Positions 33,693 to 54,632 are shown, counted from the first letter of the stretch. The stretch is 64,000 nucleotides of DNA from a virus (IMGVR_UViG_3300009161_000021), one strand, 5' to 3'. The notes: a model not told the origin generated them from the sequence alone. Program-made: numbers and translations.

Positions 33693-33718
33693 TCGTTGAA
33701 CTCCTTAATCTCTTCGCT

Positions 33719-33725
33719 TAACTAT
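33719..33725 (-). promoter_or_regulatory. Late-promoter-like motif ATAGTTA upstream of sheath 1
   Basis: Recurrent ATANTTA motif in an intergenic gap. Confidence 0.6.
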
Positions 33726-33731
33726 TGTTGA

Positions 33732-36700: not shown

Positions 36701-36842
36701 ACACGGTCGTCGGCACAAAGGCCGGCCCCGAGGCTGCGGCTCCGATGAGCCCACCTGGGACGCCCGTCGGTTGCGCGCCCGGGGCGGTAAGCTCTATCTC
36801 CCGTTCAAAGAATCCAGGAGAGCGAAAGATTTGTTCCGACAT
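33732..36842 (-). CDS. Contractile tail sheath protein, paralogue 2
   Basis: 1036 aa; FRSPGFFEREI, GPAFVPT, ATYFPDV, PWYAPAGFNRA, RINPIATFP, FGQKTLQ, DRVNVRRL, LLFEPND, VPTRAVEFI. Confidence 0.92.
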   Translation of the reverse strand: MSEQIFRSPGFFEREIELTAPGAQPTGVPGGLIGAAASGPAFVPTTVSSFSDFSARFGGLDPDRPATYAANEWLKHKGALTFIRVLGAGANASMSDVATTLTQGVVRNAGFKVTGSTVALPAGDARKTGAVQFLVARHSIPASSTTPSEWKGFPIFSENPSFNPPSIGDTLNIVRGVLMFPTGARGMVLDMTGANSQWSGGGSVIDDVASTDLNAASSNYKKFKFVISSSQGSSFGTTDGYSGLRILTASLNPSANDYFGKVFNTDPKKFQAEQHVLYLDFPIEDELVGLDVTGDSCVAVASGSSNTYLQNFGRFDTRYTTARTPAIISQPFGSLEHELFYFETLTDGESGNALYKVSISNVKASTDPRNPYGTFDVNVRDLYDSDTSPQILETFAGCDINPASQNYVAKKIGDLKVSYNFDASDESEQRLVINGNFPNASRRIRVITAAGLTTGVVPASALPFGFKGIPVVRTSQTLTDTSSALTEGTRTYGAGANALPRLYCSSSVATTLTGSIVPPLPFRFKATKGTVDGSAYIGSPGLLEIPDSRYHWGVKFERLPATASISSAVMNSNDGTEFNPLILSYSKMQGIQKLDALVTGSDADIFNANKFTLARVALSNTSLTDVTGTVEAHMKETAYIRNGVPSTTDYRIADAALGGSRITFASLLSGSANTFNKFAEYAKFSTMFYGGFDGVNILDAASAKLGDRATSTESGGLAAGGVEPIARSGLGYDPAGSSLSNNAVNSYRVASKLMTDKYTVNVNVIATPGVREPLVTDYLARRLSSYALGMYVLDAPAYSDANVRIFEDSALKPNVTKTADAVTARSLNNNYVATYFPDVFVNDTTTNRRVKAPASIAALGALAYSDRVAYPWYAPAGFNRAALDFVTNVEVRLNTSDRDYLYDNRINPIATFPGNGFVIFGQKTLQVSKSAFDRVNVRRLFLELKRVIQDVARGLLFEPNDATTRQSFIDRATPLLSLIKAQAGIEQFRIVMDSTNNTAADVAAYRLNGRIVVVPTRAVEFIAVDFIITPAGVEFV

Positions 36843-36876: not shown

Positions 36877-36883
36877 TAAGTAT
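36877..36883 (-). promoter_or_regulatory. Late-promoter-like motif ATACTTA upstream of sheath 2
   Basis: Recurrent ATANTTA motif in an intergenic gap. Confidence 0.6.
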
Positions 36884-36907
36884 CACGAAGGAAGCGAAAC
36901 GACGACA

Positions 36908-38818: not shown

Positions 38819-39991
38819 TCACCCGATCGTTATGACACGACCCATCGGTATCGGTGTCGCCTTGAGTATCTTCTGAACATTGTCAACCTCTGCTGCCTTC
38901 GTCTCGATGAGCTTGTTGTAAGTCATCGAGTCCAGCATTTCCTTGAGATCTGTTCGAAGCTTATCTTTCTCCTCTTTCGCCGATGACTTCAGATCTCCGC
39001 CGTCCAGTTGAAGCTCACCCCCCGGGATCGGAACGGACCCAAACTTGGACCTGATCATACCCAAAAGCTCCTTGGCGAGGGCAAGCGCGTACTGCCGGAC
39101 CCACTGACGAGCCATGGAATTCACCCTCGCGTAAACGAAATTACCGTAGGGAACGTTGGATAGATTTGAGACACCCGACACCGAGGCATCCGGTATCGAT
39201 GGGTTTAACGGGTTGGATTCGAATCCCACACGGACCCAGAGCTTCAGGGGGTTTGTCGCTGTCGGTGATGGGAATATCCTGATCTTCGTTCCCGTTACAC
39301 GGTAGCTGTAGTTCGAACGACGGACCCTGTTCGAGATGTTCATCTGACCGCCACGGAGGATGTCCTCGAACACCGGCAGCACATAAAAGACGGTCTCTGG
39401 CGTGAACGACTCGAAGCTGAACTCGTTGTTGAGGTAGTTGATGGCCGATGTCGTATCGAAGAATCGATACGCTGCGGATGGGTTGAAGTGCATGATCTCG
39501 AAGATCCTCATCTTTCGATGCTCTGGATTTAGAGATGAGCTCACGACAGGTGTTCCGGTCGATGGATCCACAAGATCAGTGTAGAGATCATAATCCTGCA
39601 CATTCTGACGAAGCTGAATCGCGCCCGAAACTGCATTGTAGGTTCCACCGAGACCAGCCTCGACGGCGTAGGGCTCAGCCAAACGCACGATGTAGTTGAG
39701 GGTGTCACGAGGAAGCTTCTGGGTTGCCTCATCGAGACTTCCAGTCTGCATGCCGAGAAGCGAGAGCAGCTGGCTCTTCGCCTGGTACTGATTAACGATC
39801 GATCCGTATTCGAGGAAAGCTTCCTCGAAACATGACCAAATCTGCTTCTTCGTCAACTCGACAGACAGAACGTCATCTCCAAGACGACGTTTCACAAATG
39901 CCACCATCGCATCAGCTTCAGCCTGAAACGCGGTGTCGGAATCGAAAAAACCGAATGGAGTTGGGTTTAAGGTGGTCGTGAATGTTGACAT
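38819..39991 (-). CDS. Neck / head-tail adaptor protein (T4 gp13-like)
   Basis: VKRRLGDDVLSVEL, WVRQYALALAKELLGMIRSKF, PIPGGELQLDG. Confidence 0.75.
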   Translation of the reverse strand: MSTFTTTLNPTPFGFFDSDTAFQAEADAMVAFVKRRLGDDVLSVELTKKQIWSCFEEAFLEYGSIVNQYQAKSQLLSLLGMQTGSLDEATQKLPRDTLNYIVRLAEPYAVEAGLGGTYNAVSGAIQLRQNVQDYDLYTDLVDPSTGTPVVSSSLNPEHRKMRIFEIMHFNPSAAYRFFDTTSAINYLNNEFSFESFTPETVFYVLPVFEDILRGGQMNISNRVRRSNYSYRVTGTKIRIFPSPTATNPLKLWVRVGFESNPLNPSIPDASVSGVSNLSNVPYGNFVYARVNSMARQWVRQYALALAKELLGMIRSKFGSVPIPGGELQLDGGDLKSSAKEEKDKLRTDLKEMLDSMTYNKLIETKAAEVDNVQKILKATPIPMGRVITIG

Positions 39992-40060: not shown

Positions 40061-41128
40061 TTACTTCACGCTGGCCTGATTGGCCAAGTACGTCTTCTTC
40101 GCGGACTGTGAGGTCATGGCACCTGCAACCCCGACCATGGTTCCACCGCCCAGAGCGTACGGCTTCTTGGCAAGGATCAGGAGGCTGTCAGCCGTTGGGT
40201 TGTTGACGATGTAGATGAATCTGCTAGCCTCACGATTGGTGCCAGATGTCATCTCAACCGCGCTGTCCTCTCCCTTCGTTATGTCACCTGTAGCCGGAAC
40301 TCCTAGATGATTTGCGAATAGGACTTTGATCTCGGTCAGCTTCTGGATGATCATGCTTAACTCACTGCGGGTCGCAACGGTTCCAACAGATCTCGCCGTC
40401 TGCGCTGCATTTGCGAGGAGGACTGCGAACCGCAGGTTATCGCGGGCGAACAGCATCTTCTGGTCAAAGATGTTTCTGCCGTTTGTGGTATCCTGATACT
40501 GATCGATCGCCGTCTGGACCGACCTTGCCAGCAGGTTCATGACCGTGTTCACATCGCGCGCGGTCTGATCCTGACCGATCGGAGTGTTGGGCGCCTGAAC
40601 CTGCAATGTCGACTGCACAGGAGCCGTGTCGATGCCAGTCTTACCCGTGATCGCGGCCTGCTTTCCAATGAGAGCTGCAATAACATTTCGACCTACGACG
40701 CCGTCCACTGGAAGGCTAGCGGCGTTCTGGAAGGCTATCGTCGCTTTCTGAGTGTTAGGACCGTAGTCACCGTCGACCTTGAATCCTTTCGGCAGTGGAA
40801 TGCCTGAGGCGTTCATGGCAAGCTGCAGAAGCTCCTGATAGATGCTGACAGCGGTTCCCTTGGATCCGGTCTTTAAGGTGACCTGTCCCTGCCCTGCACC
40901 GGCGCCAGCATGAACCTGTAGGAACGTCGGGTCATTACGCATCCTATCGGCTAGGCTCACAGGAATCGTCCAGTTTCCAGCGTTGATCGGGGTACCTGGC
41001 ATTCCCAAGGGAATTCCCTGTCCGACCTTGATCGCACCGGAAATAGTGCGTGTGGCTGCCTGCTCTCTCATCGCTCTGTGAGCTTCCTCGCGTATGATAC
41101 GACGCAGCGTGGACTCAGAAATTAACAT
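40061..41128 (-). CDS. Peptidoglycan-binding-domain protein with the N-terminal shared helix motif
   Basis: LKTGSKGTAVSIYQELL...VDGDYGPNTQKATIAFQ..ASLPVDGVVG is a PG_binding_1 pattern; N-terminus MLISESTLRRIIREE. Confidence 0.8.
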   Translation of the reverse strand: MLISESTLRRIIREEAHRAMREQAATRTISGAIKVGQGIPLGMPGTPINAGNWTIPVSLADRMRNDPTFLQVHAGAGAGQGQVTLKTGSKGTAVSIYQELLQLAMNASGIPLPKGFKVDGDYGPNTQKATIAFQNAASLPVDGVVGRNVIAALIGKQAAITGKTGIDTAPVQSTLQVQAPNTPIGQDQTARDVNTVMNLLARSVQTAIDQYQDTTNGRNIFDQKMLFARDNLRFAVLLANAAQTARSVGTVATRSELSMIIQKLTEIKVLFANHLGVPATGDITKGEDSAVEMTSGTNREASRFIYIVNNPTADSLLILAKKPYALGGGTMVGVAGAMTSQSAKKTYLANQASVK

Positions 41129-41131
41129 GAT

Positions 41132-42934
41132 TTATCTCCCTTTCTTGTATTTATTTTTGTTCTTGACACTTTCAAAAAGAATCTTAAGCAGAGATGACCT
41201 TCTGCGGGAATCGACAATCGCTCCGTGCTCACCCTTCAGGATGGACCAGTACTTGTCCTTCATCTCCGGACTCAAGGTCTGGGGCACGTACTGGTCGAAT
41301 GACTGCTTATCATCGGCGGCGAGAAACTGCCTCATCCTTGTCCCTGAGATCTGGACGGTCTCAGCTCTCGATACCGGACGCTGCTCGAATTTCTCTATGA
41401 CAGCTGGATCCCTGATGTTATCAGCCATCTTCGAGGGTGAGTATTTCACCCGAGCGTCCTCATCGTCAGAGTAGAACACGAACTTGCTGACAACGTTCTT
41501 CAGCTGACGCATCTTATCGACAGCGAGGCTCAGCGGAGATTCCGGTGAGATGATGAGGGTCGCATTCGGAAAATCACGGTGAAACTGGGGCTCCAGCACC
41601 GCCTTCCACGCGTCGATCATCACGCCCGGTGGCAGCTCATCGCGGCCAGCGGTCGAAGTGATTATGAGAGCCTCGTCGCACTCCTGAGATGCGAGGCTGA
41701 TCATCTGCCAGTGACCAGCGTGGACGGGCTTTCCAGAGACTACGAAGATTCCAATGCTGATTCCGTTCTGCGTCCCAATCTCGAGACGCTTCATCACCTG
41801 CGTCTTCGTTGTGAGGAACAGGTCCTCCTGACGTTGTATGAGAGTCTTCGGATGATTTAGAGCACCCAATCGATTCGAGATCGCAGCGTCGAAGTAACAC
41901 TCCGCGTGGATCCTCTCGAAAATTTCATCGAGATCGCTCTCGGGCACGTTTCGACGCTGGGCGGGAGCGTGCTCAGACGAGATCTCATTGGCGATGCTAA
42001 CGATGCCGTTCCAGTAAGCCTGTTCGTCCTCCTTCGTCGCAGCCCTAAACTTCTGCTTGATCGCCTGTCGATGCTCAACATCGTGCTGGTCAAAACGAAG
42101 TGCCTTGTACAGGGCCTGGGTGGCCGACGTCCTAAAGACAGATCCCTCTGCTGGTGAGCGCTCGCTCTCTGTTGAGAGCGATGTATCGAAGTCAGAGAAT
42201 AAATCGTAGATAGAATCGACTATCTTCAGAACTCGATCAGGACCAGAGTCTCCGTAAGCTGCTCTTAGCTTTGAATCAAGGTCGGCAGCCCGTCGCTCGA
42301 TGGAAGCGCTCTTGATGCCCGACTTCAATCCCTGGAATGACTCGAGGTTACCTTCGAAGAGAACGGGATATGTCTGAACTCCGAGCAACCTGGCATACTC
42401 CTCGAGCTTTGCCTCATCGTTCTGCGGAGTGATGTTCGAGACAAGATAGGTTCCTGTCACCTTGTACCTTGAAGGACCGAAGAGGGTCAGGAAGATCCCA
42501 TGCTTCCGAGGATACTCACGGCTGATCGTTGGCTTCCGCTGAACAAACTCGAGAAAGAATTCGGTCCCGGGAGGAATCGCAGCGGTGTTTCTATGAACCT
42601 GCGCAAGGTGAGAGTGAACGAGAGAGTACTGAGCTGTTCCGGATGATCCTGAACGAACCTCCTCCTCGCGTGCAGCAAGGCCGCGTGCCTCACCCGGATA
42701 GATGACGTTGCCCTTGTAAGCGATGTACCAATTCTTGGTGTAATCTTCTGGATCGAACGCGTTGTTTCGACGGAGGAGCGTGAGCTTCGTGCCGTCGATC
42801 TTCTCTACGATCTTGATGCTGGGATCACTCAGGAACACCTGGGCTTTCTTTATATCATTGGCCCGCGCGCGTGGAGACGCGTCAGGACGAACCATGACCT
42901 TCTTGAGATCTTCGATCGAGATATCGGTTGACAT
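41132..42934 (-). CDS. Fusion of an RNA-ligase-like (Rnl2/ATP-grasp) adenylyltransferase domain and an HxGH class I nucleotidyltransferase domain
   Basis: Ligase motifs I EKIDG, III EFFLEF, IV AEGSVF, V LYKA. C-domain VVSGKPVHAGH and ISGTRMR (HxGH and SxTxxR signatures of the NMNAT/PPAT/cytidylyltransferase fold). Confidence 0.7.
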   Translation of the reverse strand: MSTDISIEDLKKVMVRPDASPRARANDIKKAQVFLSDPSIKIVEKIDGTKLTLLRRNNAFDPEDYTKNWYIAYKGNVIYPGEARGLAAREEEVRSGSSGTAQYSLVHSHLAQVHRNTAAIPPGTEFFLEFVQRKPTISREYPRKHGIFLTLFGPSRYKVTGTYLVSNITPQNDEAKLEEYARLLGVQTYPVLFEGNLESFQGLKSGIKSASIERRAADLDSKLRAAYGDSGPDRVLKIVDSIYDLFSDFDTSLSTESERSPAEGSVFRTSATQALYKALRFDQHDVEHRQAIKQKFRAATKEDEQAYWNGIVSIANEISSEHAPAQRRNVPESDLDEIFERIHAECYFDAAISNRLGALNHPKTLIQRQEDLFLTTKTQVMKRLEIGTQNGISIGIFVVSGKPVHAGHWQMISLASQECDEALIITSTAGRDELPPGVMIDAWKAVLEPQFHRDFPNATLIISPESPLSLAVDKMRQLKNVVSKFVFYSDDEDARVKYSPSKMADNIRDPAVIEKFEQRPVSRAETVQISGTRMRQFLAADDKQSFDQYVPQTLSPEMKDKYWSILKGEHGAIVDSRRRSSLLKILFESVKNKNKYKKGR

Positions 42935-44469
42935 CAGCTTCCCCAGATTGCAGATTCTATGAGACGATTGAGACGATAAGCTTTCGATTCATCGACTTCA
43001 CCTGGAGCTGTGTCGTCCTCAGTGAATCCTTCCTCTCCACGAACCTTGTACTTCGCGTAGAAGCTTGCCTTCATACCCTCGATGTCCATCGTGGAGGATT
43101 CAGCTTCGGGAAGGATTTGCCTGAAGACCTCAAGGATCTTTTCCTTGACGCTCATATCTTCGTTCTTGTCAGTTGCTGAAATTTGCTGGGCAACTGCACC
43201 GAAGAGCCTGATTGCCATCTCCTCGTAAACCCTAACAATTTCAGGTGGAGTCATCCTGTTTTTCATTATATCGAGCGTACCGAGGAATGATCCAAAGTCC
43301 TCCATCTCTTTTTCCGTAGGCGGCGGATTATCTCCGAACATCCCTGTGAATATTTGTCTGATATCACGAATCGCTTGGGTTCTCTCAACTCGTTTCAAGT
43401 ACTTGTAGACATCATTCCCGTTGTGCTGCCAGTCGAGCTTCCTGTACCTGTCGGAGTATCCAGTCACAAGATCGAGGGATTTCATGGGTCTCAAACGAGC
43501 GGGCTTCTTCTCAGCTGCTGAGAGCTCAGCCTTGACCTCGGTCTCAGCTTTACGGCGAGCGGTCGCCGGGCTTATTCGAGGCTGCTGTGATTCGATCTCG
43601 GACGCACGAGCCTGGATCTTGCTCTCGATCTCCTCGGCGCTGGGTGGCACGTACTTCCTGTCCTTGGTCATCGAGATCTTCGGATTCTCGGCCGAGGCTG
43701 CGTCCGTGGCAAGACGTGCATCGATGGGTGGGGGAGAACGAACTGCAGCAAGCGAGAATAGAAGGATCTTGTGCGCGAGACCTTTCACACCCGCCTCGAT
43801 GTCTCTCCAGGAGGACGAGTATGAAAACTTTGCCCACGGAGAGGGTCGACCGCCCTCGTACTCAGATCCTTCGAAGTCAATCTGAAAGAACGTATCCCCC
43901 TCACCGGGAGGAGCGGAGGGATCCCATGTGTAAGCGAAGAGAGCGTTGATCTGGTGCTGACCCGGGCTCTTTTTGTTGTGACCGACGTACGCAATTCTTG
44001 GGGTGAGCTGCTCATCCTCACGACGGTTGAGCGTTGAAAAGAGCCCGTTCATCTTATCAACTGGAACCGTGAGGTCGATGTCCCCCACTGTCGGCTTAAA
44101 CTCTAGGAACTTCTCGTCCGACAGAGTCTCTGGAGGGGCGAAGAGATGCGCTGATGATCCGTTAAAGGCGAATCCGGAACCCAGGACATCATCGCGTTGG
44201 GCTCGATCCCAAAGCGGCTCACCGTGGTCGTTGTTGAACTCATCATCGAGGACCTGAAGCATCTCAATGACGTCGCGTCTCAGATCCTGACGATTTATCC
44301 TGCCGGATCGAAGATCTATTTTTTCAGCAAAAGCAGATCGACCGCGGAACTGCCTGACCTGGTCAGGACCCGAAACTAGGCCCGTCTCTGGGTCTCGAAC
44401 GAGTGCTCTGGTGTTGCCCCCCTCATTGACGGGAGCAGCACCGAACATGAACTTTGAGATGCTAAACAA
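42934..44469 (-). CDS. Pol-beta-superfamily nucleotidyltransferase-like protein
   Basis: NGSS...VGDIDLTV (GS plus DxD) and a third acidic residue in FQIDFE; N-terminal VNE/GGN. Confidence 0.65.
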   Translation of the reverse strand: MFSISKFMFGAAPVNEGGNTRALVRDPETGLVSGPDQVRQFRGRSAFAEKIDLRSGRINRQDLRRDVIEMLQVLDDEFNNDHGEPLWDRAQRDDVLGSGFAFNGSSAHLFAPPETLSDEKFLEFKPTVGDIDLTVPVDKMNGLFSTLNRREDEQLTPRIAYVGHNKKSPGQHQINALFAYTWDPSAPPGEGDTFFQIDFEGSEYEGGRPSPWAKFSYSSSWRDIEAGVKGLAHKILLFSLAAVRSPPPIDARLATDAASAENPKISMTKDRKYVPPSAEEIESKIQARASEIESQQPRISPATARRKAETEVKAELSAAEKKPARLRPMKSLDLVTGYSDRYRKLDWQHNGNDVYKYLKRVERTQAIRDIRQIFTGMFGDNPPPTEKEMEDFGSFLGTLDIMKNRMTPPEIVRVYEEMAIRLFGAVAQQISATDKNEDMSVKEKILEVFRQILPEAESSTMDIEGMKASFYAKYKVRGEEGFTEDDTAPGEVDESKAYRLNRLIESAIWGS

Positions 44470-44485
44470 TTTACGCTCCTTGAGC

Positions 44486-45448
44486 TCAGATGCCCCAGTT
44501 GATCGAGATCTTCCGACGGCCTTCCGTCAATGTACCCCCTGAGCCTCTTGCTATGGGTGCGGTGTCCCTGCGTTGGAGAGCAGCACCATTCACAGTTATA
44601 GACGTCGGAAGAGCCAGCTTCTCATTGACTTTTATCACGTTGGGGTCTGGTTTGTTAAGAGCAGCTGCAAGCGCTTTGTAAGCTGGAGGGGTTCCATTTC
44701 CGTAGAAACGAAGGCAGATCTGCGACAGAGTATCTCCTCTTACGACGGTGTACGTCTTCGTTCCAGGAGTTGGTGTCGGACCAGGACCTGGAGTTGGTGT
44801 GGGAGAAGGTGCCGGAGCGACGGCGCCGCCGGGCTTCCCGCCCGCTTTTTTCCACTTCATGATCGCCGCGCTAATAAAACGCCAGAAGAAATCTGTTCCC
44901 AGAGCGTACGTTCTGTCCTCTCTCTCTAGATTGTCCAGAGCCGGGAAAGCTTCCTTGTACTTGTCGTTAACGATCTTATACAAGCTATCCGCATTGAGAG
45001 TTCCAGACTTAGCAGCGGAGAGAACTTGATCGAATATCTCCTGCTTGTAAGCAGACGGAAGGTCATCAAGGTCACCGTCGTCTTGACCCTCCATTCCACC
45101 TGAAAGTGGGCCCAACGCATCGACATTCATATCACAGTAAAGAAGTGGATCAGTTCCCGTTAGGGTCGAATTGCTAGCTGAATCACGACCCGTCTCTGCC
45201 GTTCCACCTGCGCCGAACATAATATCTTTGAGGTCAGCTTCAAGCTGCGCGTCCGCTGCAGCAGCAGGGTCGACGGGAGCGGAAGGCGCTGCCGGTGTTG
45301 CTGGCGCGGCTGGTGCTGCTTGAGCTGGTGCTGGTGCAGATACGCTCGCTGTTCCTGTATCACCGTCGTCTGCAGGTGCTTCAAACAATCTAACGCGACG
45401 TGATTCCTCACGAAGGATCTGGCGAAGTCTCGCCTCGGTAATCTTCAT
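44486..45448 (-). CDS. LysM-domain protein with the N-terminal shared helix motif and Pro/Ala/Thr linkers
   Basis: YTVVRGDTLSQICLRFYG...NKPDPNVIKVNEKLALP; linker PSPTPTPGPGPTPTPG; N-terminus MKITEARLRQILREES. Confidence 0.8.
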   Translation of the reverse strand: MKITEARLRQILREESRRVRLFEAPADDGDTGTASVSAPAPAQAAPAAPATPAAPSAPVDPAAAADAQLEADLKDIMFGAGGTAETGRDSASNSTLTGTDPLLYCDMNVDALGPLSGGMEGQDDGDLDDLPSAYKQEIFDQVLSAAKSGTLNADSLYKIVNDKYKEAFPALDNLEREDRTYALGTDFFWRFISAAIMKWKKAGGKPGGAVAPAPSPTPTPGPGPTPTPGTKTYTVVRGDTLSQICLRFYGNGTPPAYKALAAALNKPDPNVIKVNEKLALPTSITVNGAALQRRDTAPIARGSGGTLTEGRRKISINWGI

Positions 45449-45504
45449 ACGTTATTTCTCCATACAGGGATACATATTCCGCTCACGAGCAAAAGCGTGC
45501 ACCG

Positions 45505-45536
45505 AAAACTACAACGGCCACCCAAAAGGGTGGCCG
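45505..45536 (-). terminator. Intrinsic terminator after the major capsid gene
   Basis: Minus strand: CGGCCACCC TTTT GGGTGGCCG followed by TTGTAGTTTT. Confidence 0.7.
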
Positions 45537-45561
45537 CGTAGTGTCCTGAGGACCCCCTACA

Positions 45562-47448
45562 TCAGATGATGTTGAGGTCGAGGCAGGTGACCGTACCGTA
45601 GAAGTCCGACCTGACCATCTTCTTGCCGTAGCGAGTCATGACACCCTTTCTCGGGGTGAAGTCCTCAGGCGCGAAGATCGTCGGGGTGACAATCAGCGGG
45701 ACGTACGGAGCGTAGACGTAGCCGGTCTCGAGGTAGCTTCCGCCCTTGAAACCAACAAGGATCTTGTTGCGGGGGAAGTACGGATCCTTGTACACCGTGA
45801 AGCGGTTGCTCAGGGTACCAACCTTCTCGGCGCCGATCGAGAACGGAGCGCCGACCTGGCCGGAGCCGTCGATGCTGTAGCTCGGGCGGTAGTAGGTCGA
45901 GGCCTCGAGGATCGTGGCGACGTCCGGACCGACCACGATGAAGTTCGCGGAGCCGCGAAGCGTCTTGCGGTGGATCTCGTTGGCGACGTCGATGATCGTC
46001 TCGGTGAGGGTCTCGTACCACTCGCGGACGGTACCGGTGAACATCGGGCCGATGGTACCAGCGCCGCCGGTCGTCTGGAAGACGCCCGTGGTCTTGTTGA
46101 CGAACTTACCAGGAGCGCGGCTCCAGAAGTAGTTCGCGCCGGAGGCCTGCACGAGGAGGTCGTTGAGGATCTCGCGATCCAGCTCGAGGGCAATCTGCTC
46201 GGAGAGGATCTGAGTAAGCTCAACCTCAGCGTCGATGCTGTGGTAAGCGTTCAGATCCTGCGCGAGCTCCGGAGACCAGCGAGCGCGGAGCTTGCGGGTC
46301 GTCGCGGTGACGGCGAGGGACTCGATCTTGATGTCGATCTCGGGGATGACCGGGGAGGGGGTCGTGCCGAAGTTCGACTCGAAGACCGGGATGGTCGCGG
46401 TGGAGCCGGTTGAGGTCTCGACGTCCAGTGAGGAGGCGAGCGGGTAGCTGAGCCTCATCTGACCCGAGCCGCTTGACATGTCGGTGGTGAGGGCACCAGA
46501 GACGACGGTCAGGAGGTGGGTTCCGGAGAGCGGGGTGGGGGTGAAGACGCCGCCAGCCCAAATGCCGATCTGGTTCAGACGACGAAGGTTGAGGACACCG
46601 CTGCCGCCCTGGAATGCCTCGCCGAACACCGTAGCGTCGCCATAGGTCGTCCTCGGGAAGAGAGCGAAATCCTTGGCGAGGCTCTGGTCAGTGGAAGCCG
46701 AGCAAGCGCCGAGCTGCACGACCGCGAACTTGAAGGCGCCGGTTCCGACACCGTTGCCCGGGTTGACGCCCGCCTCGATGAGGGAGGTCATCTGCGGGTC
46801 GAATCCGAGGAGACGACCGTCGGTGCCCGTCGCGAAAGCGAACTTTGTCGCCGCGAAAGCTCCGTTACCACCGAAAGCGCCTGAGGCCTCGACCGTGACA
46901 TTCGTGAGAGCGTGCACGCGGCTGTAAGCGGTTCCGACGAGATCGTACATACCACCCACGGCGAGAGATCCGCTCTGGATTCCCTTACCAACCGGGTTGT
47001 TGTAGATCGACTGGCCGGTGCTGTAGGTCGCCTGGGTGCTATTCGGGGTTCCGTCAACGCCTGAGTTACCACCGCGGTCGTTACCGTAGGTGTAATCCAG
47101 GTAGAACAGGAGACCGGATGGGAGGCTCATTGGCTGGATCGAAACGAGCTCGTTCGCCACTAGACCACCGAAGACGCGGCGGACGATGGGGAACGCGATG
47201 TTCGAGAAGCCGCGGATGTCGCCACCGCCGGAGGTGGAACCGCCACCGGATGACATCGAGTTGCTCTCGCGGAGGAGGTTGGCAGTCTGGTTCTCGAGGA
47301 GGCGAGCCATGTTCTCGCGATTGACGCCCTCAAGGCCACGAAGCAGGCCGGTGCGGCTCCACTTCTCGACGAGACGGCCGTTCTCCGCCCCGACGTCGCG
47401 CCCGCGGATTCCTTCCGAGAGCTGCTCTAGTGTGAAAGTCTTTGACAT
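45562..47448 (-). CDS. Major capsid protein (T4 gp23-like)
   Basis: KWSRTGLL, AFPIVRRVFGGL, VSIQPMSLPSGLLFYL, TRKLRARWSPELAQDL, EIDAE..LSEQIALELDREIL, GYVYAPYVPL, GVMTRYG; strongly biased codons. Confidence 0.95.
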   Translation of the reverse strand: MSKTFTLEQLSEGIRGRDVGAENGRLVEKWSRTGLLRGLEGVNRENMARLLENQTANLLRESNSMSSGGGSTSGGGDIRGFSNIAFPIVRRVFGGLVANELVSIQPMSLPSGLLFYLDYTYGNDRGGNSGVDGTPNSTQATYSTGQSIYNNPVGKGIQSGSLAVGGMYDLVGTAYSRVHALTNVTVEASGAFGGNGAFAATKFAFATGTDGRLLGFDPQMTSLIEAGVNPGNGVGTGAFKFAVVQLGACSASTDQSLAKDFALFPRTTYGDATVFGEAFQGGSGVLNLRRLNQIGIWAGGVFTPTPLSGTHLLTVVSGALTTDMSSGSGQMRLSYPLASSLDVETSTGSTATIPVFESNFGTTPSPVIPEIDIKIESLAVTATTRKLRARWSPELAQDLNAYHSIDAEVELTQILSEQIALELDREILNDLLVQASGANYFWSRAPGKFVNKTTGVFQTTGGAGTIGPMFTGTVREWYETLTETIIDVANEIHRKTLRGSANFIVVGPDVATILEASTYYRPSYSIDGSGQVGAPFSIGAEKVGTLSNRFTVYKDPYFPRNKILVGFKGGSYLETGYVYAPYVPLIVTPTIFAPEDFTPRKGVMTRYGKKMVRSDFYGTVTCLDLNII

Positions 47449-47503
47449 TTTATATTCTCCAATATGGAAAGTTGTTACAAAAAACGATTAAACCAACGGG
47501 TAA

Positions 47504-49234
47504 TCACTTACCCGGCTTGATACCTGCGAGGATGCCCCAGCGATCGACCTCAACGGATTCATTCAGGTTGCTTGCGCTGCCTGACCGTGTTGATCTGGAC
47601 GATGAGCCCAAAACGCGACCCTCGTTGACTGTTCCCGACTTGGACTTGAGTGACTCAGTCAAGCTCGTGAACAGAAGCTTCGCTTCCCTAACGGACTTCG
47701 CGGCGTCAAGCGACTCAACGATCGCCCTCTGCTGACGCGGCGTGAGGTCGCGATTCTGCATAAGCTTATTAACGTAGAGAAGCTTAGCGTTGAACAGGTT
47801 GACCTCTTCGAGCTGCTCGCGCAGGGTAGCATTTGCGCGCTCAGACTCTGACAGTTGAGCCTTGAGCTCACGATTCTTGCGTGACTCCTCGACTCTCGCT
47901 GATCTTTCATTTTTCGCGGCGTCGGTTGCCTTCTTGGCAACTTCAAGCGCCTTGCTTGCGACGGCCTCGGCCTCATCGGACTCCGAGAGGTGGTTGAGCT
48001 CATCGGGAAGACCCGTGACGCTGCCGCCACCGAATGCCTTCGGCATCGGATCCTTGATTCCCTTCGCGTTCTTGCCCTTTGAGCTCCTGCCCTTCGCCTC
48101 ACGAAGTCTGCTCAGCTCACGACGGAGCATGGACTCATCGACGTTGAAGTGAACGCTCTCGTTCTCGTAGTCTTCGTCCTCTTCAAGCTCGTCATCTTCC
48201 TCTTCGAGCTCGTCGTATTCCTCGTCCATCTCTTCGTACTCATCGAGATCGTCCATCATCTCATAGACTCCCTCGTCTTCCTCAGAGACAGGCGGCGAGG
48301 CACCAGCTGGTGGGGCCGGCGGAGGGGCTGCACCAACAACATCGACCGGCATATCCTCTCCACCCTCAGCACCGGGCTCTTCCTCACCGGCGAACTCGAT
48401 ACCGAAGGACATCCCCTTCAGCTTCTCCTTGAAATCTTCATCGTCGAGTCCCTCGAGATCGGTGGGCTCGAACACGAGCTTCGCCTCTCTACGAAGACGC
48501 GGCTTTCTATCCATTTCCTCTAGGAGGCGACGGAATCTCGCGTTTGTTGACATTTGCTTCATCTCCTTAACTAATGTGTTGAACTTTTGCTTGACTGCAG
48601 GCGTTCCACCATTAGATAGTAGTTGACTCTGCAAATCATGCGTATTTTTCACTAAAATTGCATACGCTGCCCTAAAATTGCTGCTCTCAGAGAGCGGGAG
48701 ACTCTTGGAGACTCTCTTCAGAGACTCGAACTGGCGACGAACCGTCCCGTATGAAACTCTCTGCTTTCTTTCTCCAAGAACCATATCAGCGAGCGCTTCG
48801 AGACCTTCCTTGTTAAGGGAGATATCGACATCGTCTCCTTCAGCAGCATCGGCCTCGGCAGCAGCTGATGCTTCACCGTGCTTATCAACGCGAACGTTTA
48901 TCTTCACCTCAGTCCCAGAAGCTGTCTTCGTGGTGACCGTGTGAGTGACCTCCTCGTCAGGGTCAGGAGCACCTGCGGCTGGTACCATGCCCGCATCGGC
49001 TGCCATGGGTGGTGCTGCGGGAGCGTTCATTTCATCCGGAAGCGCTTCGAGGTCGAGATTCGGAGTCTCATCGTCGGCAGGAACATCCTCATCCTGCTCA
49101 GCGAGCATCTGCTGCTCGATGAGTTGCCTGATTCTGGGTGATATGGATTCAATGATCTTGTTGCGTGCGTTTGCTTCAGCCATCTCTCTAAGGGCCTTTG
49201 CATCTGCTATCGCTTCGTCGAAAAGATTCGGCAT
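47504..49234 (-). CDS. Prohead core scaffolding protein (T4 gp22-like)
   Basis: 576 aa; coiled-coil and highly acidic; LEEVNLFNAKLLYVNKL, QQRAIVESLDAAKSVREAKLLFTSL; directly upstream of the major capsid gene. Confidence 0.8.
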   Translation of the reverse strand: MPNLFDEAIADAKALREMAEANARNKIIESISPRIRQLIEQQMLAEQDEDVPADDETPNLDLEALPDEMNAPAAPPMAADAGMVPAAGAPDPDEEVTHTVTTKTASGTEVKINVRVDKHGEASAAAEADAAEGDDVDISLNKEGLEALADMVLGERKQRVSYGTVRRQFESLKRVSKSLPLSESSNFRAAYAILVKNTHDLQSQLLSNGGTPAVKQKFNTLVKEMKQMSTNARFRRLLEEMDRKPRLRREAKLVFEPTDLEGLDDEDFKEKLKGMSFGIEFAGEEEPGAEGGEDMPVDVVGAAPPPAPPAGASPPVSEEDEGVYEMMDDLDEYEEMDEEYDELEEEDDELEEDEDYENESVHFNVDESMLRRELSRLREAKGRSSKGKNAKGIKDPMPKAFGGGSVTGLPDELNHLSESDEAEAVASKALEVAKKATDAAKNERSARVEESRKNRELKAQLSESERANATLREQLEEVNLFNAKLLYVNKLMQNRDLTPRQQRAIVESLDAAKSVREAKLLFTSLTESLKSKSGTVNEGRVLGSSSRSTRSGSASNLNESVEVDRWGILAGIKPGK

Positions 49235-49261
49235 GCTTTCTTCCTATTTCCTACGCTGAAT

Positions 49262-49268
49262 TAAGTAT
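49262..49268 (-). promoter_or_regulatory. Late-promoter-like motif ATACTTA upstream of the scaffold-capsid operon
   Basis: Recurrent ATANTTA motif in an intergenic gap. Confidence 0.6.
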
Positions 49269-49272
49269 ATCG

Positions 49273-49857
49273 TCACGGGTCTTTTTCGAGCTCTTGCTCC
49301 AAATGAATTGCACGTATGAGCCTGCGGAGCCTGCTGGCGGTCAGCTCATCCGAATCCGGGATCTCTGCAAGGGTGTATGCTGGTTCCATGGATCCCGCGT
49401 CCCTGAGTGGAAGCGAGCTGGAGTATCCGGCCTTGGACCCAGAAAGTGAGATTCGAGCGGGAGCTGGTCTTATCGATGGACCGTCAGCACCGACCCCGAG
49501 GACGCCCTGCTTATTCTTATACAGATCAGGCATCGGCGAGATACCACGACCCGTGGTCTGCTCGTGCATTCTGAAATCGGGACTGACCATTCTTCTGTTA
49601 TCGGCCGCACGATCCGCGTAGGAGTCCCAACGGATGTGACCCTGTCCAGCCTTGTTACCGATCGCGACCTGCGTTCGCAGATCTTCCTCGTCCTCAAGAT
49701 CTTCCTCATCATCAACGTCATCTCGAACTATCTCGATATAGGGCCATGAGCCCTGTGACATCCGAGGCAAATCACGACGCCCGTCCGTGCCGTATCCCAG
49801 GCCGGTGCGAGCGTCGTGATTCGGATTGTTAGCCTCGTCGAGGCGACGACGTGACAT
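49273..49857 (-). CDS. Hypothetical protein in the head module (C-terminal shared helix motif)
   Basis: 194 aa; ends ...ELTASRLRRLIRAIHLEQELEKDP. Confidence 0.65.
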   Translation of the reverse strand: MSRRRLDEANNPNHDARTGLGYGTDGRRDLPRMSQGSWPYIEIVRDDVDDEEDLEDEEDLRTQVAIGNKAGQGHIRWDSYADRAADNRRMVSPDFRMHEQTTGRGISPMPDLYKNKQGVLGVGADGPSIRPAPARISLSGSKAGYSSSLPLRDAGSMEPAYTLAEIPDSDELTASRLRRLIRAIHLEQELEKDP

Positions 49858-49865
49858 TGGGACCC

Positions 49866-50471
49866 TTACGTTAGGGCGCCTGGATTATCGATGTGGGTTG
49901 TCTTCGTTGACCCGTCTGGGAGATTTGCTCCGCTCTGTCCACGGGGCGCGATCGGTCCCGTTGCTTCGATGGTCGTCTCGGCAATTTTCGCAGATGTGCT
50001 CTCGGGAAAGACTGACGTGATAGAGTTACCGCTGCCGAAATTGTCGTTCGCCAATCTTTCAACGCCAGTCGACGTTCCATCGACTTCTGCGGCGGGGTCG
50101 GTCGGGACCACGAGGAATGGATAGTAGCGACCTTCGTACTGACCAGACGTCAGCGTGCCGAACGTGGGAGCTGCAGTCGCAGAAACAACTACGCCGGACG
50201 AATCGACCGGTCCCTGATAGTCAAGATTGACGCCTCCCGGGAATTGGTCAGGATCACCACTCTGCAGCGTTGGCTGCAGATACGTCTTCGCGTTCGCGCG
50301 AACAGTAGCTTCTGTCTCTCCAGCTGTGTACAATGGAGAATTCGGAAACATCGCGCTTAAAGTCGCCGTGTTAGATCTTGCTTCTGATAGCGGAAGCGGC
50401 GTCCCTGCGACGATGACCGTCTGTGTTGTCTTTGGACTAGCGACAATTCTCGTAGGATATTTTCCAGGCAT
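49866..50471 (-). CDS. Hypothetical protein in the head module
   Basis: 201 aa, Pro/Thr/Gly-rich; GGAGGG SD and ATAGTTA motif upstream. Confidence 0.65.
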   Translation of the reverse strand: MPGKYPTRIVASPKTTQTVIVAGTPLPLSEARSNTATLSAMFPNSPLYTAGETEATVRANAKTYLQPTLQSGDPDQFPGGVNLDYQGPVDSSGVVVSATAAPTFGTLTSGQYEGRYYPFLVVPTDPAAEVDGTSTGVERLANDNFGSGNSITSVFPESTSAKIAETTIEATGPIAPRGQSGANLPDGSTKTTHIDNPGALT

Positions 50472-50501
50472 TTTTGATTCCCTCCCCTCTAACTATTCCG
50501 A

Positions 50502-50798
50502 TCAGAGCTGTTCGAGGATGTGGGCGCGAATCTCCTGACGAGCCTCGTTAATCTCCGAGAGACGCCGCGCGATACGTGCTGCTTCGTTCTGGAGATCCTT
50601 GTAATGAGCGACTTCCTTCGCGAGCGTGTGAGCGAGCTCAGTGGGCTCGACTTCCTTCGTCTGCTTCGCAGCATCGCGGGTTGTGCCGGGCTTACCGGAT
50701 GGCATCTTCTTGGACGCGCGCTTCTTAGCAATCTTCTGCTTCTCTTCCTTGATGATGAGACGAAGAATTTCAGGGGTGAGATTTACGACCTTCGACAT
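50502..50798 (-). CDS. Small head-module protein with the N-terminal shared helix motif
   Basis: MSKVVNLTPEILRLIIKEEK; SD and ATAGTTA motif upstream. Confidence 0.7.
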   Translation of the reverse strand: MSKVVNLTPEILRLIIKEEKQKIAKKRASKKMPSGKPGTTRDAAKQTKEVEPTELAHTLAKEVAHYKDLQNEAARIARRLSEINEARQEIRAHILEQL

Positions 50799-50839
50799 AT
50801 TGACTCCTTTGTAGGCATATCAATTGTTAACTATCTTCA

Positions 50840-51292
50840 TCACTTCTTTTTTTCTGCCGAGAAAGCAAGTTCAGCCCAATTTGACGACCCTTCAAAAAGT
50901 GACATGGGATCAACATCTGGAACCCCCTGGGCGACTGACATTGCGGCAGCTGGATTCCGTTCAGCGGTCATCTGGGCTGGTAGCGTGTTTCGTGCAGTGT
51001 CCTCGAATATCTGCTGCATGATCCCGCGTTCCTCCTTCGGAAATTCGGACGCAAGGTTCGCGACAGCAGGTATTGGAGCTCTGCGACCTTGCGCTTGCTC
51101 TGCGACTCTGCTCGCCCCTGCTGAGAATGCTATGCTATCGAGATGCTTCTTCGGTGCTGGCGCGGGTCGGTTCAGAGATTCGCGTTGGGGACGAGCAGGA
51201 GGCTCCTCACCGCCCCGGAGACCCTCGAGAAGAACCTCCAAGATGCACTCTTTAACAATGTCCTTTAACTCAGCCTTAGTCAACGATGCCAT
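50840..51292 (-). CDS. Head-module hypothetical protein with the N-terminal shared helix motif
   Basis: MASLTKAELKDIVKECILEVLLEG; coupled to the protease gene stop. Confidence 0.7.
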   Translation of the reverse strand: MASLTKAELKDIVKECILEVLLEGLRGGEEPPARPQRESLNRPAPAPKKHLDSIAFSAGASRVAEQAQGRRAPIPAVANLASEFPKEERGIMQQIFEDTARNTLPAQMTAERNPAAAMSVAQGVPDVDPMSLFEGSSNWAELAFSAEKKK

Positions 51293-51903
51293 TAAGCCTT
51301 CCAGGTTAGAATATCGTTGAATATTCTATCAATCCGATCGCTTCGATTAAATGTTCTTGAAAGTTCCGAGGCTTTTACTTCACGACCTTCCCTCATCATG
51401 AAAGCGCCGGGGGTGCTCGGCTCCGAAACGAAATCCCAGCAGATAAGCTGGAAGTCATCCTGCACGACCTGGGAGTCACCCGACTTGCTGGTCGATCCGA
51501 CACCGCGGGAAGAGATTCCAAGCGTGACGCCAGCCTCGACAAGGCTTTGAAGGATCTTGCCGCAGGGAGTGTCAAGGATCTCAACTGTTCCATAGCAGAC
51601 GTTTCCCTCCATGTAAGCTTCCCTGATGATGTGACTCACCTTTTTCAGCTCCACTACGGACGAATCGGGGTGATCGCATTCGCCCAGCGCTCGATTCTCT
51701 CGAATGAATTTCTGGTAGTTTCTTACCTCACGTTCGAGAATATCACGAGGATAGATTCTCCCGTTCTGGTTCAGTGTTTCAGCCTTCTGAAGGATTCCCT
51801 TCATGATAAGGCGACCACCGCTCTCCTTCGCCTCTCTGATCGATTTGTTATCGTAAGAGAATGGCATCCATTCCGTCAAAAGTGTCAGGGATCTATCACT
51901 CAT
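51292..51903 (-). CDS. Prohead maturation protease (T4 gp21-like)
   Basis: GILQKAETLNQNGRIYP, ALGECDHP (His), VSH, LGISSRGVGS (Ser), WDFVSEPST. Confidence 0.95.
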   Translation of the reverse strand: MSDRSLTLLTEWMPFSYDNKSIREAKESGGRLIMKGILQKAETLNQNGRIYPRDILEREVRNYQKFIRENRALGECDHPDSSVVELKKVSHIIREAYMEGNVCYGTVEILDTPCGKILQSLVEAGVTLGISSRGVGSTSKSGDSQVVQDDFQLICWDFVSEPSTPGAFMMREGREVKASELSRTFNRSDRIDRIFNDILTWKA

Positions 51904-52732
51904 CTTTTGCCTCTAATTCTTGCTGTAGTTGCGTTAGCTGCATGAACTTAACGATTCCTGCGTCATCCAACTTCGTGACGTCAGCGCTTTCGACAATTTT
52001 GAAGACGTGATCGATCTTCTCAAGGAGCACCTGACTCTTTGTCGACTCTTTAAGACGTTGCAGTCCCCTGCTCGTCCTTCTTTTTATATTGTCGAGCATA
52101 GAAGCATCAACTTTGCCATGAACATAATCTCGAATCAGCTGATGCTGAACCTCGGTTAACTTTCCAGCCCACTTCTTCTCGAACTTTTCGTTCATGATCT
52201 TTACTGAAAGAGGAGAAACGCGCTCGTTCTTCAGCTCGGTCAGAACAGGCGTCTCTGATTTGTCGGAACCGATCCACTCAAGCAGCTTCTGCTCATACTG
52301 AATGACTCGACCCAGGCTTGCCTCATCGTCCTTGCGCCAATCATTCATCAGAGTCTGAACCGTGGCGTAGAGTCTGTAGTTCTTAACGTGCTGGTTGAAG
52401 AACTTGACATCATCTATCGATTTGTTTATCTCCCTAATCAGCTGTGATTTTTCAATTTCAAGCTGACGCGTTGAGAACATATTCGAGCCACGTTTGGCTT
52501 CCTGCATAATGCGAAGACCAACATTCTCAGATTTCACGGTAGTGTTCAGCAACGCCTGAAACAACCTGTGCTCTTTGAATATCTCGGTCCCGGGCTTGTA
52601 GTACTTCTTAATGATTCTCGAGCATTCCTGGACGGTCTCGAAGTCATTATCGATGAGAGCGGACGATGCTTTTGAGAGCAGCTGCTCGTAGATGATCCCG
52701 ACGTTTCTTTTTTTGTTGTGAGAGTTACTCAT
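51896..52732 (-). CDS. Head-assembly-associated hypothetical protein
   Basis: Lies between portal and protease. The likely start is MSNSHNKKRNVGIIYE at 52732, overlapping the portal stop; the track ORF starts at 52780. Confidence 0.7.
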   Translation of the reverse strand: MSNSHNKKRNVGIIYEQLLSKASSALIDNDFETVQECSRIIKKYYKPGTEIFKEHRLFQALLNTTVKSENVGLRIMQEAKRGSNMFSTRQLEIEKSQLIREINKSIDDVKFFNQHVKNYRLYATVQTLMNDWRKDDEASLGRVIQYEQKLLEWIGSDKSETPVLTELKNERVSPLSVKIMNEKFEKKWAGKLTEVQHQLIRDYVHGKVDASMLDNIKRRTSRGLQRLKESTKSQVLLEKIDHVFKIVESADVTKLDDAGIVKFMQLTQLQQELEAKDE

Positions 52733-54632
52733 CGAAGCTTCCTGATTTGCTGGGTGACTCTGGTGTCTCGAGTAAGACATCCGTACTTTGCTTACGTATT
52801 CTCGAGCGAGCTTGTTTAAGGGCTGAATCTAACTGAGCTGACATTCTCGGCTTCGGGAAGGGAGGATTATCATAGAGCTGCTCGACCAAGCTCAAATTCG
52901 GTCTTGACTCTGTTGCTAGCGAGAAGAGCTCATCTTCATCGAAGACTCTGTTTGAAGTATCCTGATCCCTCGCCCACTTTCCAGTTCCCGCCATCTTGAA
53001 CATATCCGGCATTTCCACGGAAGCTGCGGTCGAGCGGTCACGTTCCTGCTCGACGTCTTTTCCGAAAGCGTTTCTTATCTTCTTCTCCGCGCGAAGTGGA
53101 AGCTCATCATTCTCTATCGACATCACAGCAGGTTTCTCAACACCAGCAGAGACGATCTCACCCTCTCTCTCGTAGCCAGCCGTGATCGGCGCTGCTCCGC
53201 CAGCGCCACCTCCGCCACCGACTCCGCCCTCGCCACCAGGCATCGACTCGAGCTCAGCGTCCTCTTCCTTATCCTTCTTCCTACCCTCTTTCACAGCTTC
53301 GATCTCTTCATCAGAGAACCCAAGTATGTTCTTCCTTACCCAACGTCGATCGACGATTCCCTCAGGAGCTTTTCCAGCAATGTCGAACCTTGATGAAATC
53401 AGCTCAAGCTTTTGCTGCTGAGCTATTGTGGACGGGTTGGAGAGCTTGAGCGTGAAGTTAAGCAGATCCTCACCCTCATACCCATGCGAGTAGAGGTGGA
53501 TCATCGCCATCTTGTTCAGCTCTGAAATGACCACCTTCTGAATCCTTGAGATCGTGCGTGAGAATCGAATGTCTTCCTGCGCGAGAGTTGCCTTCGCTCC
53601 GATCTCCTCATCGTAACCGAGGTAAGCTTTCGGAATTTTCAAAGCTGCGAAAAGCTTCTTCTGTATGTACTGGACGTCCTCGATCGCAGCAGCGTTGCTT
53701 CCGCCCGCCAGCGAATCGATCTTTGTACCTGTCTCGCCACCACGAACGGGAATGAAGTAATCCTCGTCAACAGCGAGCGGATTGTAGCGAAGGTCCATCT
53801 TGCCGTTCGCCTTGTCGGATACTTTATTTCTCTTAAGGCTTGTCTGCGCCTGCTCCATGAAGTTGGCAACCTCTTCTGGAGGAACGTTTCCAACATCGAT
53901 GTAGAATACACGCCGCTCCGGAGCGCGGACGATACGATACACGAGCATCGCATCCTCCATCAGAATCATCTGACGCCAGATTCTACGAGCTGACTCCAGG
54001 ACTGATGATCCGTAAGGAAGGAACGCATCATTACCGAGAAGCCGAAAATGTGAGATCTGCCAGTTCTCCAGGACCTGGTTGCCTCGAGTGATCCAACGAA
54101 AACGAACCGCCATCGGGTCCTTAGGGTCATACCCTTCCTCTCGCTCCATCTCGGAGATAGGGATAGGATAAGCGTTGATGATCCCGTAACCTGGATGAAC
54201 ATCGTTGAAGAGGAAGAAGTCTCCGTACTTACAGAGATTTCGGGTCCACATCGGAAGGTTAAACTCAATGTTCAGAGTATCGGAGAATAGCGTGTCCAGT
54301 AGCTCCTTAACGCGTCTGTTCTCCGAATGAACGTGAAGAACCTGGCTCTTCTCGTCCTGTGAGACAGTCTCTTCCGCGTAAATGTCGAGAGCGGAAGCGA
54401 TCTCAGGAGTAGCCTCCATTTCCGAGAAGTCAGAGTAGCGCGACATACGATCGAAAGCACCATACGCAGCTACCGTGCTTGAGTAGATGTCAGATTGATT
54501 CTTCCTGAACATCTCGTAAGCGGACGAAGCTGTGGGTTCTGAATAGTTCTTCACCTTCCGTCTGATTACGGGGCCCGACCTAAAAAGTTGGGTCAGTCTT
54601 TGGAATAGATCTCTGTTTGTTTTTTCTGCCAT
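52725..54632 (-). CDS. Portal protein (T4 gp20-like)
   Basis: YSDFSEMEATPEIASALDIYAEE, RNLCKYGDFF, MEDAMLVYRIVRAPERRVFYIDVGN, EDYFIPVRG, YIQKKLFAALKIPK, EDIRFSRTI. Confidence 0.95.
   Translation of the reverse strand: MAEKTNRDLFQRLTQLFRSGPVIRRKVKNYSEPTASSAYEMFRKNQSDIYSSTVAAYGAFDRMSRYSDFSEMEATPEIASALDIYAEETVSQDEKSQVLHVHSENRRVKELLDTLFSDTLNIEFNLPMWTRNLCKYGDFFLFNDVHPGYGIINAYPIPISEMEREEGYDPKDPMAVRFRWITRGNQVLENWQISHFRLLGNDAFLPYGSSVLESARRIWRQMILMEDAMLVYRIVRAPERRVFYIDVGNVPPEEVANFMEQAQTSLKRNKVSDKANGKMDLRYNPLAVDEDYFIPVRGGETGTKIDSLAGGSNAAAIEDVQYIQKKLFAALKIPKAYLGYDEEIGAKATLAQEDIRFSRTISRIQKVVISELNKMAMIHLYSHGYEGEDLLNFTLKLSNPSTIAQQQKLELISSRFDIAGKAPEGIVDRRWVRKNILGFSDEEIEAVKEGRKKDKEEDAELESMPGGEGGVGGGGGAGGAAPITAGYEREGEIVSAGVEKPAVMSIENDELPLRAEKKIRNAFGKDVEQERDRSTAASVEMPDMFKMAGTGKWARDQDTSNRVFDEDELFSLATESRPNLSLVEQLYDNPPFPKPRMSAQLDSALKQARSRIRKQSTDVLLETPESPSKSGSFDE

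Follow-up and report, generated by a model that had tools for sequence, protein, structure and literature searches.

Phage T4 provides the precedent for a capsid-targeting sequence (CTS) and for cleavage after Glu (PMC9958956, PMC5694885), and its CTS has been described as core-associated by means as yet unknown (PMC9958956, PMC7411985). Many head proteins of phages SPN3US, phiKZ and 201phi2-1 are likewise processed after Glu by a T4-type protease, and a prohead-targeting function has been attributed to the N-terminal propeptides of giant phages (PMC5694885, PMC7411985); for the SPN3US protease gp245, its own C-terminal propeptide has been proposed as a packaging signal (PMC7411985). Here we analyze a 64,000-nucleotide stretch of viral DNA (IMGVR_UViG_3300009161_000021; the whole stretch is termed the window, with positions counted from its first letter) in which a short amphipathic helix recurs at the termini of otherwise unrelated proteins. 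Judged by sequence comparison, this helix is probably a portable tag for docking to the prohead core, the version of the T4 CTS used by an uncultivated T4-like clade. The encapsulin cargo-loading peptide, which is short, usually C-terminal and sometimes N-terminal, and directs unrelated enzymes into an HK97-fold shell, is a further known system with which the helix can be compared.

The core of the tag, L-[RK]-x-[ILV]-[ILV]-x-E, was found to start at residue 7-12 in seven window proteins. It forms part of an amphipathic helix of ~12-18 residues with hydrophobic residues at positions 0, 3, 4, 7 and 8 and a near-invariant Arg/Lys at +1. These seven proteins have six unrelated bodies, two being paralogues; in a comparison with 25 residues trimmed per end, only 2..703 and 722..2287 were related to each other. 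Scanning of the 51 window proteins (20,923 residues) with the regular expression [LIVM][RK].[LIVM][LIVM].E yielded 7 matches, of which 5 start at residue 8-12 and 2 are interior. A position-specific scoring matrix (PSSM) was also trained, in 14-column and 10-column versions, on 22 independent N-tagged families from relatives, with the window proteins excluded against circularity. By use of the 14-column PSSM, five of the six best 14-mers in the window were found to be N-termini, namely those of 44486..45448 (25.1, the best score), 40061..41128 (22.6), 50502..50798 (18.2, at residue 12), 50840..51292 (13.9, at residue 9) and 13809..14102 (12.9), with the C-terminal region of 49273..49857 (14.7) ranked fourth. 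An N-terminal score of at least 8 was reached by six window proteins compared to 0.13 expected from shuffles.

The excess was also detected in relatives, for which more than 590 related loci were found in IMG/VR. The largest related contig, G001, is 257 kb at a completeness estimate of 76% and thus points to a jumbo genome of roughly 340 kb. This contig has 19 N-terminal matches to the strict regular expression compared to 1.0 expected (p = 3e-18), and no N-terminal excess was found in its reversed sequences. In 80 related loci, 75 of 139 matches fall within the first 20 residues and 60 are interior. The codons differ between copies of the tag, revealing conservation and selection at the peptide level. 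A chance or composition effect, in which common helix-forming residues or a start-of-gene codon bias would produce the pattern, might be suspected of a motif that is short and degenerate and that also has interior matches (2/7 in the window and 60/139 in the loci). The tag is, by contrast, held in a fixed register (residue 7-12 from the start or 8-11 residues from the end), exceeds the shuffled and reversed controls and is encoded by different codons, and its C-terminal copies rule out an effect of translation start; chance is excluded. The tag similarity within genomes compared to that between genomes differed by 2.1 BLOSUM units, which was not significant (permutation p = 0.06).

An earlier note on this DNA had proposed, from the sequence alone, that a short motif is shared by the termini of about ten unrelated proteins, and had called for a profile scan against shuffled proteins. 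All of the termini it quoted were found in place on the minus strand, which encodes all of the window genes, and the shared motif proved real by PSSM, regular expression and trimmed-body comparison, with termini enriched in both the window and G001. The count was slightly generous: most of the proteins are unrelated, but two are paralogues and two of the C-terminal copies are weak.

Two of the N-terminal carriers are conserved genes beside the protease gene, between it and the scaffold-like gene, like T4 genes 67 and 68. The first encodes a 150-aa conserved head-core protein (50840..51292) that starts with LKDIVKECILEVLLE followed by G (about 51224-51292) and has a C-terminal NWAELAF tail; both tag and tail are conserved in an alignment of 31 homologues. 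The second, a 98-aa head-module protein (50502..50798) and positional analogue of T4 gp67/gp68, carries LTPEILRLIIKEEKQK (about 50742-50798), which is kept in orthologues and resembles the IDLIKEEKIA of T4 gp67. On the other side of the capsid gene, a 320-aa protein with a Pfam LysM domain (44486..45448) starts with MKITEARLRQILREE...RLFE followed by A (about 45380-45448); this protein has no homologue in the 80 related loci and is thus regarded as variable cargo. A 355-aa protein with a peptidoglycan-binding domain (Pfam PG_binding_1; 40061..41128) carries MLISESTLRRIIREE (41084-41128), and a homologue at 52% identity has nearly the same tag (14/15 first residues). The replication region encodes a 97-aa protein (13809..14102) with the tag LDRKNLRLMIMEALD (14049-14102), the homologues of which in G001 and a second relative, G002, are also tagged. 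The two paralogues complete the set: a 521-aa LRV/HEAT-repeat protein (Pfam LRV; 722..2287) that starts with YLRALIESVLLE followed by S (2237-2287), and a paralogue of its N-terminal domain that runs off the window (2..703) and starts with FKLRVLVESVLLE followed by G (650-703). They are 52% identical over 172 residues and have a variant N-terminal tag, LRxL[IV]ESVLLE. At the left end of the window, the tagged genes have as flanking neighbours a ThyX-type thymidylate synthase gene (3179-3847) and the gene for a gp32-like single-strand DNA-binding protein (12827-13669).

The N-terminal phenomenon is of the T4 CTS kind. The window tags and the gp21-removed CTS and propeptides of T4 (IPI-III, Alt, gp24, gp67 and gp68) are both short N-terminal leaders on unrelated proteins with a hydrophobic-x-Glu end. 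In T4 the genes for the S77 protease, scaffold and gp23 are in the same order, with small tagged core proteins beside the protease. A local likeness to the window tag, over a few residues, was found in T4 gp24 (MAKINELLRE) and gp67 (IDLIKEEKIA); when the leaders were compared for homology to the N-termini of T4 gp21, gp22, gp24, gp67, gp68 and Alt, only the terminal hydrophobic-x-Glu was shared. By contrast to T4, the window consensus is different and longer, and the carriers are more numerous (9-11 in the window and, in the relative of 257 kb, about 34). The window clade also has C-terminal and double-ended tags, a use that PMC9958956 and PMC5694885 do not describe for T4. The giant-phage propeptides are unlike the window tag in that they are mostly longer than 100 residues and do not share one common short motif, the cut motif is A/S-x-E compared to the putative [ILV]-x-E in the window, and C-terminal targeting has been proposed for the protease only and not for cargo. 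The likeness to encapsulin cargo lies in a short terminal peptide on unrelated enzymes and does not extend to sequence, and the partner in the window may be the scaffold instead of the shell. Encapsulins are further set apart by a portal-less shell and no phage packaging genes, while the window has a gp23 capsid protein, gp20 portal, large terminase, S77 protease and scaffold. A literature search with six representative tag strings gave no match.

The C-terminal and double-ended use of the tag, and its switching between ends within a family, are what is new here and are well supported by comparison of homologues. When the window was ranked with the 10-column PSSM, the best four matches were two at or near C-termini, in 722..2287 (20.7) and 49273..49857 (20.6), where the core Leu lies 8 and 17 residues from the end, respectively, and two at the N-termini of 40061..41128 (20.2) and 44486..45448 (19.0), with the fifth-best match at 12.0. 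At the family level, among all proteins collected, 4 families had C-terminal matches at a threshold of 12 compared to 0.7 expected, an enrichment (~5-fold) far below that of the N-termini. The C-terminal copy of 722..2287, SESRLRNLIRRMI (725-766), belongs to a family in which both tags are kept in most of the 44 phage homologues (30-92% identity). The N-terminal tag of this family has either the LRxL[IV]ESVLLEG form or a canonical MRITESQLRRIIRE in the same position, while the C-terminal tag has the form ..E-[SA]-[RN]-L-R-[QR]-L-I-R-[RQ]-M-[LI]; in 39/44 homologues, precisely 8 residues separate the Leu of this tag from the end. Both tags are absent from the homologues on two large cellular-size contigs, one of which is named Nostocales. 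The copy in 49273..49857, which encodes a 194-aa head-module protein, is near-C-terminal (TASRLRRLIRAIHLE, about 49276-49347) and is found in most of 13 homologues (28-86% identity), with the three most distant having no clear copy.

End-switching was observed in the family of a 511-aa enzyme-like protein with a GDIDL motif (42934..44469). The body of this family aligns throughout, whereas the tag is N-terminal (e.g., MKTISSLLRQLIRE), at the extreme C-terminus (..ESLLRRLVQI), at both ends (as in member P0042) or absent depending on the phage. The C-terminal helix of the window member, VDESKAYRLNRLIESAIWGS (42937-42990), is a poor profile match, but distant homologues have canonical copies at the same spot. 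An AF2 model (pLDDT 89.8) was confident except for residues 1-18 and the C-terminal helix 494-509, and a modelled helix set beyond a low-confidence linker is as would be expected for an appended tag. In the window subclade, a hydrophobic N-terminus (MFSI[AS]KF[IM]FG) aligns with the N-terminal tag of the other members. Comparison of the model to the PDB with Foldseek gave no clear match, the weak ones being to Pol-beta-type nucleotidyltransferases (best E 0.1); these weak matches include small alarmone synthetases and TdT, which fits the nucleotidyltransferase-like GDIDL motif. The fourth C-terminal copy, in a 600-aa protein with a cytidylyltransferase-like C-terminal half (PHROG; 41132..42934), is weak (SSLLKILFESVK, about 41135-41215) and has no profile match in the window, its sole support being three homologues that end in LRSFVQMCIKG, IRTLVRAYLIT and LRSLIKALL. 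Thus, of the four C-terminal copies claimed earlier, those of 722..2287 and 49273..49857 are strong and those of 42934..44469 and 41132..42934 are weak in the window; the modular use at either terminus that had been put forward was nevertheless borne out by the mostly double-tagged LRV/HEAT homologues and by the 511-aa family. If a tag can function at one terminus or the other, and even at both termini of a single protein, its mode of action must be that of a docking helix, which excludes any process tied to the N-terminus.

The protease that may act on these tags is encoded at 51292..51903. As the earlier note had claimed, this 203-aa protein is a T4 gp21-type prohead serine protease, confirmed by its match to Pfam Peptidase_S77 (PF03420; E 7e-26) and by its alignment to T4 gp21 (32% identity), in which the NHP and SSRG motifs are in register, motifs that we take to carry the catalytic His and Ser of gp21. 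The N-terminal tags terminate in [ILV]-[RK]-E, in many cases with a second LLE or LFE and a small residue after it, which is a T4 gp21-type context; the ends of the seven copies are IRE, LRE, IKE, VKE, LLE and LFE. The gp23-type major capsid protein (628 aa; 45562..47448; Pfam Gp23, E 3e-76, with a BLASTP match to T4 gp23) carries the same L[RK]E, in the form of an LL[RK]E that is invariant among ~60 relatives and precedes a Gly-rich linker at about residue 58-61. This site is within about ten residues of the equivalent of the T4 gp23 cut, as placed by the BLASTP offset and with the T4 cut presumed to be at Glu65. The gp21-type hydrophobic-x-Glu ends that had been predicted for the N-terminal tags are borne out by sequence. 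When the [LIV]xE content of the 51 proteins was compared to composition-matched shuffles, the scaffold-like protein was highest (27 vs 13.8, z = 4.0) and the protease next, and the six highest proteins also included the capsid protein and three carriers. This pattern is in line with T4, the gp21 of which cleaves after Glu and breaks up the core (PMC5694885).

The [ILV]xE ends and the adjacent S77 protease gene would also suit a propeptide that is removed by the protease and serves only to keep enzymes inactive or unstable until maturation, with no targeting role. We regard this explanation as quite improbable: a cleavage signal needs ~3 residues, whereas at least 10 are conserved, some of them upstream of the cut; the C-terminal copies have no downstream cut site and about a third have no upstream Glu; and the T4 protease acts inside the prohead, such that its substrates must arrive first (PMC5694885). 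The protease of the window also ends in a helix, RIDRIFNDILxW (about 51295-51342), that has the hydrophobic spacing of the tag and is conserved in 37 relatives; this helix closely resembles the C-terminus of the 511-aa protein in the window subclade, RLNRLIE[AS][VA]IW. In two relatives (L015:4535-6226, on the same contig as G001, and L024:4922-6592), the S77 protease gene is interrupted in frame by an intein of ~1 kb that has both intein-splicing and LAGLIDADG endonuclease domains, and the window protease has no such insert.

A candidate docking partner is the 576-aa scaffold-like protein (47504..49234), encoded between the protease and capsid genes. Among 47 sequences, its conserved blocks are residues 1-45 (including PRIRQLIE, about 49115-49138), 363-379 (48098-48142) and 440-576 (ending in DRWGILAGI). 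The segment VDESMLRRELSRLRE at residues 363-379, reported in the earlier note as an internal copy of the tag, is present and conserved, but it was not among the top 25 matches to the 10-column PSSM (the lowest of which scored 6.5), and was rejected as a true copy on profile score. Among the matches listed, the only ones in the scaffold were at residue 234 (8.3 by the 14-column PSSM) and residue 23 (a weak 3.5). Prediction of a complex between the scaffold and the 150-aa protein, both with alignments, gave a score of 0.00, which speaks neither for nor against binding.

A second terminal module was observed in the same proteins. Every scaffold ends in [DN]-R-W-x-x-L-A-G-[IL] (47507-47540 in the window), the 150-aa core protein ends in N-W-A-x-L-A-F (50843-50880), and several unrelated non-scaffold proteins of relatives end in the scaffold-type tail (L008:3721-4761, L012:7331-8302, L045:3933-4976 and L035:11979-14264). 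The pattern of these W-x-x-L-A-G-type tails suggests a second terminal address, and the scaffold-type tail may be a shell-binding anchor that is also borrowed by cargo.

A terminal amphipathic helix that functions at either end could also be a membrane-targeting helix of the MinD, FtsA or MreB type, which would place wall-binding proteins and enzymes at the inner membrane instead of in the capsid. Helices of the MinD/FtsA type are net cationic with no conserved acidic residues; the N-terminal copies have a net charge of ~0 with a conserved Glu at +6 and further acidic residues, which is unusual for membrane anchors, while the C-terminal copies are at about +1 to +3 (~+3 for SESRLRNLIRRMI), and it is for these cationic copies that membrane targeting is the main rival. 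Some carriers are cytidylyltransferase-like or peptidoglycan-binding, as membrane targeting would suit, and T4-type prohead assembly itself occurs on the membrane (PMC9958956). The presence of the tag on conserved head-core proteins encoded between protease and scaffold, and the coincidence of the tag end with the protease consensus, argue otherwise, and overall we consider a membrane anchor unlikely.

The helix has heptad-like spacing, and may alternatively be a general module for hetero-oligomerization (a coiled-coil 'velcro') that gathers proteins on a hub independent of the capsid, such as a replication or metabolic factory or a chaperone. In keeping with this possibility, many carriers of relatives are enzymes or tandem paralogue arrays far from the head module, and some window carriers lie among replication genes. 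The upstream regions of the genes bear on this point. The late-type promoter motif RATASTTA was detected in 9 copies in the window compared to 1.7 expected, of which 8 are on the coding (minus) strand, intergenic and upstream of genes (709-716, 2293-2300, 3153-3160, 30651-30658, 33719-33726, 36877-36884, 50490-50497 and 50828-50835). These precede the carriers 2..703 (709-716), 722..2287 (2293-2300) and 50502..50798 (50828-50835) and five other genes, including two of ~1,000 aa at 30675..36842. The remaining carriers have at best variant motifs, such as AATAATTA upstream of 13809..14102, so the association of most carriers with the late-promoter motif that had been proposed held for three and not for the others. 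The motif ends 5-6 nt before the ATG of 2..703 and 722..2287 (as does the variant at 13809..14102), which suggests nearly leaderless transcripts. These motifs are consistent with late expression of the carriers located among replication genes. Carriers outside of the head module thus share a late-type motif with genes of the head and tail blocks, the best-conserved carriers are head-module genes, and the L[RK]E at which the tag ends is also the putative site of capsid maturation. A capsid-independent hub is, in light of these points, a poor candidate.

We therefore favor, as the probable role of the helix, that of a portable prohead-core docking tag. By this mechanism, the tag would bind a common partner in the core, for which the scaffold and other tagged core proteins are the most plausible candidates, and would thereby recruit its carriers to the scaffolding core as the prohead assembles. 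Cleavage of the N-terminal copies by the S77 protease would then follow, after the terminal [ILV]-[RK]-E or LLE; the [LMVI]-x-E often found ahead of C-terminal copies may be where these are freed. The released cargo, which would include the LysM and peptidoglycan-binding proteins, two nucleotidyltransferase-like enzymes and the repeat protein, would stay in the head and enter the host with the DNA.

Several observations weigh against this role. The C-terminal copies, being cationic, resemble membrane-targeting helices, and simple regular expression counts at the C-termini of three whole contigs gave no significant excess (7 vs 4.2 expected in G001). In the LRV/HEAT family, [LMVI]-x-E occurs just before the C-terminal copy in 23/44 and no Glu is there in 13/44, which makes proteolytic removal doubtful; as a Glu at the same position is also found in N-terminal copies, it may be a helix cap instead of a cut site. 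About 34 of the 313 open reading frames of G001 (~11%) are tagged, including kinase-like and cytidylyltransferase-like ones, which would be a large load for a capsid. Finally, when cultured relatives were sought in 50,697 phage records, neither DNA nor protein matches were found to the region, the LysM carrier or the 150-aa protein.

A broader and more doubtful proposal is that the helix is a position-independent address for capsid cargo, used at the N-terminus, C-terminus or both and moving between ends within an enzyme family, which together with the W-x-x-L-A-G tail would form a small address code. With this code, Far-T4 jumbo phages would load the head with a large, rapidly changing set of enzymes and wall-binding proteins, encoded by about a tenth of their genes, for delivery with the DNA. 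The sorting of proteins into the T4-type scaffolding core is still termed "mysterious" in a recent review (PMC9958956). If true, the tag, being short, conserved and carried by dozens of unrelated proteins, would be a sequence handle to predict the proteins injected by uncultured jumbo phages and an orientation-free tool for packaging foreign proteins, and the end-switching of the 511-aa family, which indicates action by docking, narrows the search for a receptor. Were the membrane or hub explanation true instead, the tag would mark a large set of co-localized late proteins in a very abundant uncultured phage group.

The clade fits the uncultivated T4-like "Far-T4" phages, for which RM378 is the sole cultured reference cited (PMC4360716); such a tag is not mentioned in that paper. 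In Flavobacterium phage immuto, only a few of the N-termini resemble the tag. A DNA search of the region against the 50,697 phage records gave no match, and the capsid protein is 32-52% identical to its closest matches among them. As annotated by Pfam and PHROG, the head module consists of the large terminase (54671..56266), gp20 portal (52725..54632), a 294-aa protein, the S77 protease, four proteins of 150, 98, 201 and 194 aa between the protease and scaffold-like genes, the scaffold-like protein, the gp23 capsid protein and four accessory genes (40061..45448). The slot that holds the latter, bounded on one side by the capsid gene and on the other by 38819..39991 or its homologue, the next conserved structural gene, is hypervariable in the clade, with 0-9 genes in 47 loci; all four of the window genes in this slot (40061-45448) have a terminal copy, two of which are weak, while in relatives only some of the genes are tagged. 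The tagged genes of G001 include tandem arrays of diverged paralogues (L090:360-7190; L093:10975-16475; L090:18203 to L091:2961; L092:7340-13862), one example being six consecutive paralogues that start with MT[HQ]LLRSLIR.., with their tags conserved and C-termini of the form ..HLKDKL.

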